A stretch of DNA of 4,197 nucleotides from a virus (taxonomy: Duplodnaviria > Heunggongvirae > Uroviricota > Caudoviricetes). The stretch lies in IMG/VR virus record IMGVR_UViG_2737471848_000018; one strand, written 5' to 3'. This document shows, piece by piece, positions 4,031 to 4,184 of this stretch. The translations under genes and the position numbers were made by a program. The notes below the pieces were generated by a model. The model saw only the letters and a program-made list of their open reading frames with translations. It did not search any database and was not told where the DNA came from. Numbering within the stretch: the first letter of the stretch is position 1; each line of letters opens with the position of its first letter.

Positions 4031-4060
4031 TTGCGGAATTAATTACGGACCGTTATTATT
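4031..4060 (+). promoter_or_regulatory. Candidate sigma-70 promoter for the tRNA-like gene
   Basis: TTGCGG (4031-4036) and TATTAT (4055-4060) with an 18-bp spacer; predicted start about 4067, just before the tRNA-like 5' end at 4069. Motif only. Confidence 0.35.
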
Positions 4061-4068
4061 CTGCTCCC

Positions 4069-4144
4069 GGCCCTTTAGCTCAGTGGTGAGAGCGAGCGAC
4101 GCATAATCGCCAGGTCGCTGGTTCGAATCCAGTACAACGCGCCA
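4069..4144 (+). tRNA. tRNA-like gene with CAU anticodon (Met/Ile2 type); acceptor stem not pairable, so probably a pseudo-tRNA or tRNA-derived RNA
   Basis: Canonical tRNA landmarks: TA then D-stem GCTC/GAGC with loop AGTGGTGA; anticodon stem AGCGA/TCGCC (4 of 5 pairs); anticodon loop CGCATAA (anticodon CAT, but position 33 is G instead of the near-universal U); T-arm GCTGG-TTCGAAT-CCAGT; 3' ...G-CCA. The 5' acceptor strand GGCCCTT cannot pair with the 3' strand ACAACGC (only G1:C72). Resembles E. coli tRNA-Ile2/Met in the D, anticodon and T arms. Confidence 0.5.
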
Positions 4145-4158
4145 CACTTATTTTCCCT

Positions 4159-4184
4159 GGCTCGCTTTTGCGGGCCTTTTTTTT
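4159..4184 (+). terminator. Rho-independent terminator downstream of the tRNA-like gene
   Basis: GGCTCGC (4159-4165) / GCGGGCC (4170-4176) 7-bp stem with one G-U, loop TTTT, then T8 (4177-4184). Confidence 0.7.

Follow-up and report, generated by a model that had tools for sequence, protein, structure and literature searches.

An ileZ/argO chimera in a lambdoid prophage of Escherichia coli: a probable tRNA pseudogene left by deletion within a tandem tRNA cluster

Introduction

Lambdoid phages, Shiga-toxin phages among them, commonly carry tandem ileZ-argN-argO tRNA gene clusters, and both chimeric or truncated tRNA genes and unequal crossing-over within tandem tRNA arrays are familiar events. 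The locus considered here raises the question of what to make of a tRNA-like element in which the D, anticodon and T arms are all in good order, the two acceptor strands do not pair and the anticodon loop carries a G at position 33. The element lies near the 3' end of a 4,197-nt stretch of viral DNA (IMG/VR record IMGVR_UViG_2737471848_000018; this whole stretch is hereafter called the window), and a first-pass annotation, made from the letters of the window, had offered three explanations for it, namely a decayed phage tRNA, a tRNA whose 3' end had been replaced by site-specific recombination, and a tRNA-derived regulatory RNA. Here, we compare the element with intact phage clusters and with its copies in other genomes, and we argue, at a probability of roughly 0.8, that it is a chimeric tRNA pseudogene which arose by deletion in an ileZ-argN-argO cluster and is non-functional, though possibly still transcribed.

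The window is 100% identical to positions 1975139-1979335 of NZ_AP042519.1, from E. coli OkiPb01684 (bovine faeces, Okinawa), where it forms part of a degraded Rac-like lambdoid prophage with recE, kilR, ydaT, a truncated terminase and a second integrase. Upstream of the tRNA unit are hokD, the genes for a Doc-family toxin and for DUF1367, DUF1364 and DUF1133 proteins, isrK-like and C4-type RNAs, and a truncated ORF6N antirepressor gene. On the other side, STnc100 begins 77 nt past the CCA end in both Nil3 and OkiPb01684, and is followed in OkiPb01684 by a DUF6645 gene, a holin and a lysozyme. The unit occupies the late region, past the antiterminator gene and ahead of STnc100 and the lysis genes.

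A tRNA body without an acceptor stem

The tRNA-like body is 76 nt long, at window 4069-4144, and in it the D arm, the anticodon arm (with CAU) and the T arm are all well formed. The parts, as read from the sequence, are as follows.

4069-4075, plus strand: 5' acceptor strand, GGCCCTT
4078-4081 and 4090-4093, plus strand: D stem
4096-4099 and 4107-4110, plus strand: anticodon stem
4101, plus strand: G33
4102-4104, plus strand: anticodon, CAT in the DNA
4117-4121 and 4129-4133, plus strand: T stem
4134-4140, plus strand: 3' acceptor strand, ACAACGC
4141-4144, plus strand: G73 and CCA

The three arms, with their conserved loop bases, are recognized as tRNA by the Rfam model (RF00005), for which cmscan gives 37.3 bits at window 4075-4134 (gathering score 29, E = 2e-5), a match well beyond chance in which every aligned position has the highest posterior-probability mark. 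This match spans model positions 7-64 of 71 only, leaving positions 1-6 and 65-71, which make up most of the acceptor stem, outside it. In place of a seven-bp acceptor stem, the strands GGCCCTT and ACAACGC offer two of seven pairs in the normal register and, when the 5' strand is moved by one base, four of seven that are non-contiguous; the latter was the best arrangement over shifts of 0 to 2 bases, none of which gave a paired register. GCGTTGT, the complement of the 3' strand, occurs in the window only at 506, far off, and not upstream within reach. Closing the cloverleaf by force yields -7.4 kcal/mol compared with -14.5 for the three arms alone, where the acceptor stem of an intact ileZ contributes -12.4 kcal/mol. 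Free-energy folding of the 76-nt body and of the 128-nt unit produced a cloverleaf in neither, and the stability of both folds is at the level of shuffled sequence (z = -0.97 and -0.83, respectively). A further departure from the tRNA pattern is the G at 4101, since U33 is the universally conserved U-turn base of the tRNA anticodon loop.

In its description of the element, from the placing of the tRNA-like features to the CAU anticodon, the G33 and the unpaired acceptor strands, the first-pass annotation was right. It had also proposed ARAGORN as a check, in case a paired register had been overlooked or homologous loci turned out to be ordinary tRNA genes; ARAGORN calls no tRNA in the window, no acceptor register had been missed, and comparison with homologous loci shows the element to be no standard intact tRNA.

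RefSeq nonetheless treats the element as a tRNA, with the following PGAP feature.

4074-4144, plus strand: 'tRNA-Met', with no pseudogene flag (positions 13074-13144 of the OkiPb01684 locus extract)

The same label is found in the O121 genome (locus extract 6125-6195). The element might then be a tRNA that works despite its odd acceptor stem, either as tRNA-Met or, once modified with lysidine, as tRNA-Ile, a reading favoured by the unflagged PGAP label in every genome inspected and by an Rfam score above the gathering score. The Rfam match is local, however, and excludes most of the acceptor stem, ARAGORN makes no call, the acceptor strands reach two of seven pairs (or four, non-contiguous, if shifted) and position 33 is G. 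These features bear directly on how tRNAs are handled: the acceptor-stem base pairs are read by both TilS and MetRS, and RNase P needs a stacked acceptor and T helix. We therefore consider a working tRNA highly improbable; from the known needs for a paired acceptor stem and for U33, tRNA function has most likely been lost, and the 'tRNA-Met' at 4074-4144, which lacks both, should read pseudogene.

The front of ileZ joined to the tail of argO

Against phage records the window matched as two pieces, 330-343 bp apart there and spanning ileZ, argN and argO. Base-level alignments of the window with 933W, Nil3 and PhiR49_2 and with the prophage of E. coli PK8275 resolve the element into two parts that meet within the T arm.

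4069-4124, plus strand: ileZ-derived part, tRNA positions 1-56, running from the 5' acceptor strand through the D arm, the CAU anticodon arm and the variable loop to the 5' T-stem half and the first bases of the T loop
4118-4124, no strand assigned: crossover interval CTGGTTC, the 7 bases common to the ileZ and argO T arms
4125-4144, plus strand: argO-derived 3' end, tRNA positions 57-76, from the remainder of the T loop and the 3' T-stem half through the acceptor strand ACAACGC to G73 and CCA
4145-4197, plus strand: argO downstream flank including the terminator, colinear into the phage late region

The promoter region of the window aligns with that of ileZ, and tRNA positions 1-56 match ileZ of 933W, Nil3, PhiR49_2 and PK8275 at 55 of 56 bases, the sole difference being the U33-to-G change at 4101. 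Positions 4125-4144, by comparison, are identical to the argO 3' end of Nil3, PhiR49_2 and 933W, and the identity with Nil3 continues through the downstream flank (73 of 73 bases over 4125-4197). Three bases mark the junction: G49 (4117; A in argO) is specific to ileZ, while G57 (4125; A57 in ileZ) and T65 (4133; C65 in ileZ) are specific to argO, which places the junction within CTGGTTC (4118-4124). The element is thus an ileZ/argO chimera with its junction in this interval, and the question behind an alignment proposed in the first-pass annotation, namely where similarity to ileZ-type tRNAs downstream of Q breaks off, is settled.

Measured from the first base of ileZ to the last of argO, intact clusters with the same downstream flank span 250 nt and the chimera 76 nt, so that about 174 bp are missing, comprising the ileZ 3' end, the whole of argN and argO positions 1-56. 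The acceptor strands do not pair because they derive from two different tRNAs, and the T stem, with one half from ileZ and the other from argO, acquires a G49-U65 wobble pair. The intact genes align with the Rfam tRNA model at full length (ileZ 72.5 bits, argO 70.1, argN 50.4), and ARAGORN finds three tRNAs each in 933W, Nil3 and PhiR49_2; on 22 other loci with the window-type chimera it found none. A direct parent with both window flanks was not recovered from the viral-contig sample, in which each flank was seen separately with intact clusters.

The parental arrangement is that of the clusters of 933W (AF125520.1), Nil3, VT2-Sakai and PhiR49_2, which have the promoter region, the 5' 56 nt of ileZ, the argO 3' end and the terminator in common with the window. 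The 933W-type cluster is also placed like the window unit, with the late antiterminator region on one side and STnc100 and the lysis genes on the other. Descent from such a module is visible in the ileZ sequence at the 5' end of the unit and in argO and the terminator at its 3' end. Where the 933W type has three separate intact tRNA genes over 250-254 nt, however, the window has one 76-nt chimeric unit without a paired acceptor stem, with G33 and with no stx genes downstream, and its upstream neighbour is a DUF1133 gene plus an isrK/C4/antirepressor module rather than the Q gene of 933W.

These alignments bear on two of the explanations mentioned at the outset. Had a single ileZ gene decayed through point mutations, a change such as G33, a point substitution at an invariant position, would be expected; but argO is matched exactly by all six 3' positions that are unpaired or changed, by G57 in the T loop, by T65 and by the entire downstream flank, while only one of the first 56 nt departs from ileZ, an uneven pattern unlike that of random decay. 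Given the exact argO match of the 3' part, we reject this reading as hardly credible. The other holds that the locus is an attachment-site remnant, in which a mobile element integrated in the tRNA 3' end and swapped the 3' acceptor strand. The 3' halves of tRNAs are common integration targets and the similarity to ileZ does break within the T arm, but the new sequence is the argO 3' end of the same cluster with its own terminator, leading into a colinear late region (STnc100, DUF6645, holin, lysozyme). Furthermore, nothing has been inserted and 174 bp are missing, the locus shows no attachment-site junction, and no integrase adjoins it, the nearest being 7 kb downstream, past the truncated terminase. 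With a 3' part that matches argO and its flank exactly, this reading is likewise rejected, its chances being very slim.

What the first-pass annotation proposed survives in part. Its replacement of the 3' end by recombination was correct as to the outcome, an argO 3' end, and mistaken as to site-specific integration, the change being a deletion between shared T arms; its decayed tRNA applies to the single substitution at G33 and not to the acceptor mismatch, which, judged from the alignments, is one deletion event and neither gradual decay nor phage integration. Its third proposal, a tRNA-derived regulatory RNA, gains no support from this analysis.

A history for the chimeric pseudogene can be proposed on this basis. 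The ancestor would have been a tandem cluster of ileZ (tRNA-Ile, CAU), argN and argO (tRNA-Arg, UCU) with its own promoter and terminator, in which recombination or replication slippage took place between the near-identical T arms of ileZ and argO, with a crossover over 7 or more shared bases. The mechanism would be homologous or slipped-strand recombination, and its deletion product would run from the ileZ promoter to half of the T arm, where the 3' acceptor strand, CCA and terminator of argO take over. With its acceptor strands unpaired, the RNA would be no normal substrate for RNase P or for an aminoacyl-tRNA synthetase, and the U33-to-G change, which may have come before or after the fusion, would strip it of the U-turn base.

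Such an origin has partial counterparts in E. coli. In the tyrT-tyrV duplication, unequal crossing-over took place between tandem copies of the same tRNA, and the product still works; the mechanism proposed here is alike, but the partners in the window are different tRNAs with only the T arm in common, resulting in a mismatched chimera. The pseudo-tRNA fragments pauD, pawZ and ptwF of E. coli K-12 are partial duplicates at prophage attachment sites that stem from site-specific integration. They are, like the window element, tRNA-related, prophage-associated and taken to be non-functional; the window element differs from them in being prophage-internal, in its derivation by deletion between two phage tRNA genes and in retaining nearly the whole tRNA body.

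A second chimera from a different parental allele

The window-type chimera is not the only one of its kind. A second ileZ/argO chimera, here called type 2, is present in E. coli GPEC1405, in three viral contigs and in many other E. coli genomes, and phage mEp460_ev081 has a 3' region that matches it.

3001-3076 of the GPEC1405 locus extract: type 2 chimera, covered by a PGAP feature at 3006-3076 labelled tRNA-Met

Type 2 is like the window chimera in architecture, in upstream flank, in having arisen by deletion from the T arm of ileZ to that of argO, and in its PGAP 'tRNA-Met' label. It differs in having its crossover in AATCCAG, 3' of the T loop, in keeping U33, A57 and the ileZ T loop TTCAAAT, and in ending with the 3' strand ACAGCGC followed by a downstream region without a terminator. 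When the register is moved by one base, its acceptor strands form five of seven pairs, and for this reason ARAGORN and Rfam align it at full length (47.2 bits).

The intact parent of type 2 is found in PK8275; its flanks are identical to those of type 2, its argN has decayed and its argO allele ends in ACAGCGC, so type 2 stems from a parental allele other than that of the window chimera. The PK8275-type downstream flank occurs in 1,155 of 5,426 genomes. Among 60 records sampled across the ranking of those 1,155, 57 were annotated tRNA-Arg and three tRNA-Met, the parent being present in most. Taken together, the second crossover site and the different parental allele indicate that ileZ and argO have been fused by deletion between their T arms at least twice.

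Two details of the PK8275-type cluster may be recorded here. Its argN (about 2352-2435 of the PK8275 locus extract) is called by none of ARAGORN, Rfam and PGAP, and its argO allele is marked by a U4-G69 wobble pair and by a mismatch in the T stem (CACTAG).

Promoter, terminators and the edges of the unit

Three features frame the tRNA-like body.

4004-4029, plus strand: upstream hairpin and T-run, AGAACCCGC-CATTGA-GCGGGTTTT, folding at -13.1 kcal/mol
4031-4059, plus strand: candidate sigma-70 promoter, with -35 TTGCGG (4031-4036), a 17-nt spacer and -10 TATTAT (4054-4059)
4159-4176 (stem-loop) and 4177-4184 (T8), plus strand: intrinsic terminator GGCTCGC-TTTT-GCGGGCC, from a terminator scan, -13.8 kcal/mol

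The first-pass annotation credited the element with its own candidate promoter and a strong terminator. The terminator is borne out by its predicted stability and is homologous to the feature annotated in 933W as 'terminator upstream of the stx genes'. The promoter has fared less well, in that a consensus scan of the window reported none, the candidate, with three of six matches in its -35, falling below the threshold. The candidate -10 ends 9 nt ahead of tRNA position 1, and the site aligns with a 933W feature described as 'pT; putative tRNA promoter' (933W locus extract 2503-2531); as a promoter of the tRNA unit it is credible solely as a homologue of this putative pT. Its -35 reads TTTCGG (TTG-to-TTT) in two of the 22 chimera copies in viral contigs. 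Between the retained promoter and the retained terminator, an RNA of roughly 110-120 nt may still be made, and residual transcription of the chimeric unit may thus outlast its tRNA function.

The hairpin at 4004-4029, which a consensus terminator scan did not report, has the appearance of a terminator for the antirepressor unit ahead of it, and the left edge of the tRNA module lies just past it. It also stands ahead of the tRNA module in PK8275 and GPEC1405. In the AH19B041 prophage, a relative that has an intact antirepressor gene and is without the tRNA module, similarity to the window ends at 4027; this boundary, together with the unit's own candidate promoter and its terminator, marks the tRNA unit as a separate mosaic block.

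Distribution of the chimera and its link with G33

With an 82-nt query and a match of at least 99%, the window-type chimera was found in 156 records among 5,426 complete E. coli genomes, the carriers among the strains listed including O157:H7, O121, O111 and O111:H8. In IMG/VR it is present in 22 viral contigs, all of them with G33 and with the T loop of argO. When one genome per species was scanned, neither chimera junction had a match, and a literature search found no paper on the window-type chimera. In the viral-contig sample, about 118 ileZ loci were among the matches listed; of the 116 copies tabulated, 114 have the standard ileZ 3' end and two are single-base variants, and no further junction type appeared among the loci listed.

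The 5,426 complete genomes contain no exact match to a window-type chimera with U33, nor to an intact ileZ with G33, and all intact clusters of the viral-contig sample have T33. In the sequences examined, therefore, G33 and the window-type fusion always occur together. The chimera itself is found in at least three combinations of upstream and downstream flanks, each flank type being seen also with intact clusters, a distribution that fits a single origin followed by flank exchange of the lambdoid kind. Variation within the copies is slight: G18 is changed to A in two of the 22 chimeras, and variants overall are similarly frequent in chimeras (2/22) and in intact ileZ copies (11/116), so that polymorphism says nothing on selection.

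Pseudogene or selected RNA?

The reading that competes most seriously with a pseudogene, although an unlikely one, is that the chimera is a working tRNA-like small RNA with its own promoter, kept by selection and with an adaptive G33. Such an RNA might be bound as a decoy by anticodon nucleases, TilS or MetRS, or it might mark the late transcript for processing. Several observations sit less comfortably with a pseudogene, among them the retention of a plausible promoter, an intact terminator and the CCA end, and the fact that the chimera body is the same in at least three flank combinations with G33 in every copy read. To these may be added that the three arms score as tRNA, and that many prophage small RNAs lie close by (isrK-like, C4, STnc100 and AgvB).

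Against a working RNA, the fold is no more stable than that of shuffled sequence, and the G18-to-A and TTG-to-TTT changes, each in two of 22 copies, suggest that there is no tight constraint. The type 2 chimera is without both G33 and the terminator, which means that these features are not common to ileZ/argO chimeras as a class, and the literature search turned up no paper in which such an RNA is described. As to the unchanged body and the fixed G33, selection could give rise to them, and a single origin with subsequent mosaic recombination among prophages would do so equally well.

In its most specific form, the same idea pictures a selected tRNA-like RNA with an unpaired CCA tail and a G33 loop, unchanged across prophages, that might sequester an enzyme which binds tRNA or a toxin which cleaves it. 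We rate this a shade lower still, but if it were true, recurrent T-arm deletions in phage tRNA clusters would be a route to new tRNA-derived RNAs. The complete coupling of G33 with the fusion is in itself a minor oddity, and would gain weight only if the RNA proved to be expressed and stable.

Annotation and consequences

The parent cluster is already well known from Shiga-toxin phages (annotation of GenBank AF125520.1), and it is the chimera that has been mislabelled, PGAP calling both chimera types 'tRNA-Met' without a flag, the window type in every genome inspected and type 2 in many more. This label inflates the tRNA gene counts of prophages and could distort analyses of codon supply in strains that produce Shiga toxin. 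Prophages with the window-type chimera have lost all three rare-codon tRNAs (for AUA, CGN and AGA/AGG). The locus also provides a clean case of the collapse of tandem phage tRNA genes through shared T arms, for which two independent crossovers came to light.

Other features of the genomic neighbourhood

The region upstream of the tRNA unit contains several further RNA matches. Rfam places a1/b1 targets of C4 at 3102-3154 (50.1 bits), an isrK Hfq-binding RNA at 3115-3191 (77.5 bits) and a C4 antisense RNA at 3217-3300 (71 bits), so that the isrK/C4 RNAs (3102-3300) lie between the DUF1133 gene and the truncated ORF6N antirepressor gene (3353-3769). The whole of 3102-3769 looks like a C4/antirepressor immunity module of the phage P1 type within a lambdoid prophage; in the relative AH19B041 the antirepressor is intact, at 203 aa. 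At the very start of the window, a partial match to the sok antitoxin RNA at 1-90 (40.3 bits), which is cut by the window start, overlaps the start of hokD (85-240). Two weak matches to an isrK-like/rsmX-like hairpin, both below the gathering score, are found at 243-330 and, after the Doc-family toxin gene (649-1134), at 1083-1173.

Downstream, STnc100 (144.5 bits, plus strand) and the anti-GcvB RNA AgvB (96.5 bits, minus strand) are found in OkiPb01684 from 24 nt past the window end (locus extract 13221-13476), and PGAP annotates a minus-strand 'hypothetical protein' pseudogene over the STnc100 region of this genome. Most related genomes cover 89% of the window, as two pieces. The O121 genome is not colinear with window 1135-1641, between the Doc toxin and DUF1367 genes, where its gene offsets differ by about 45 nt and PGAP annotates a pseudogene fragment.
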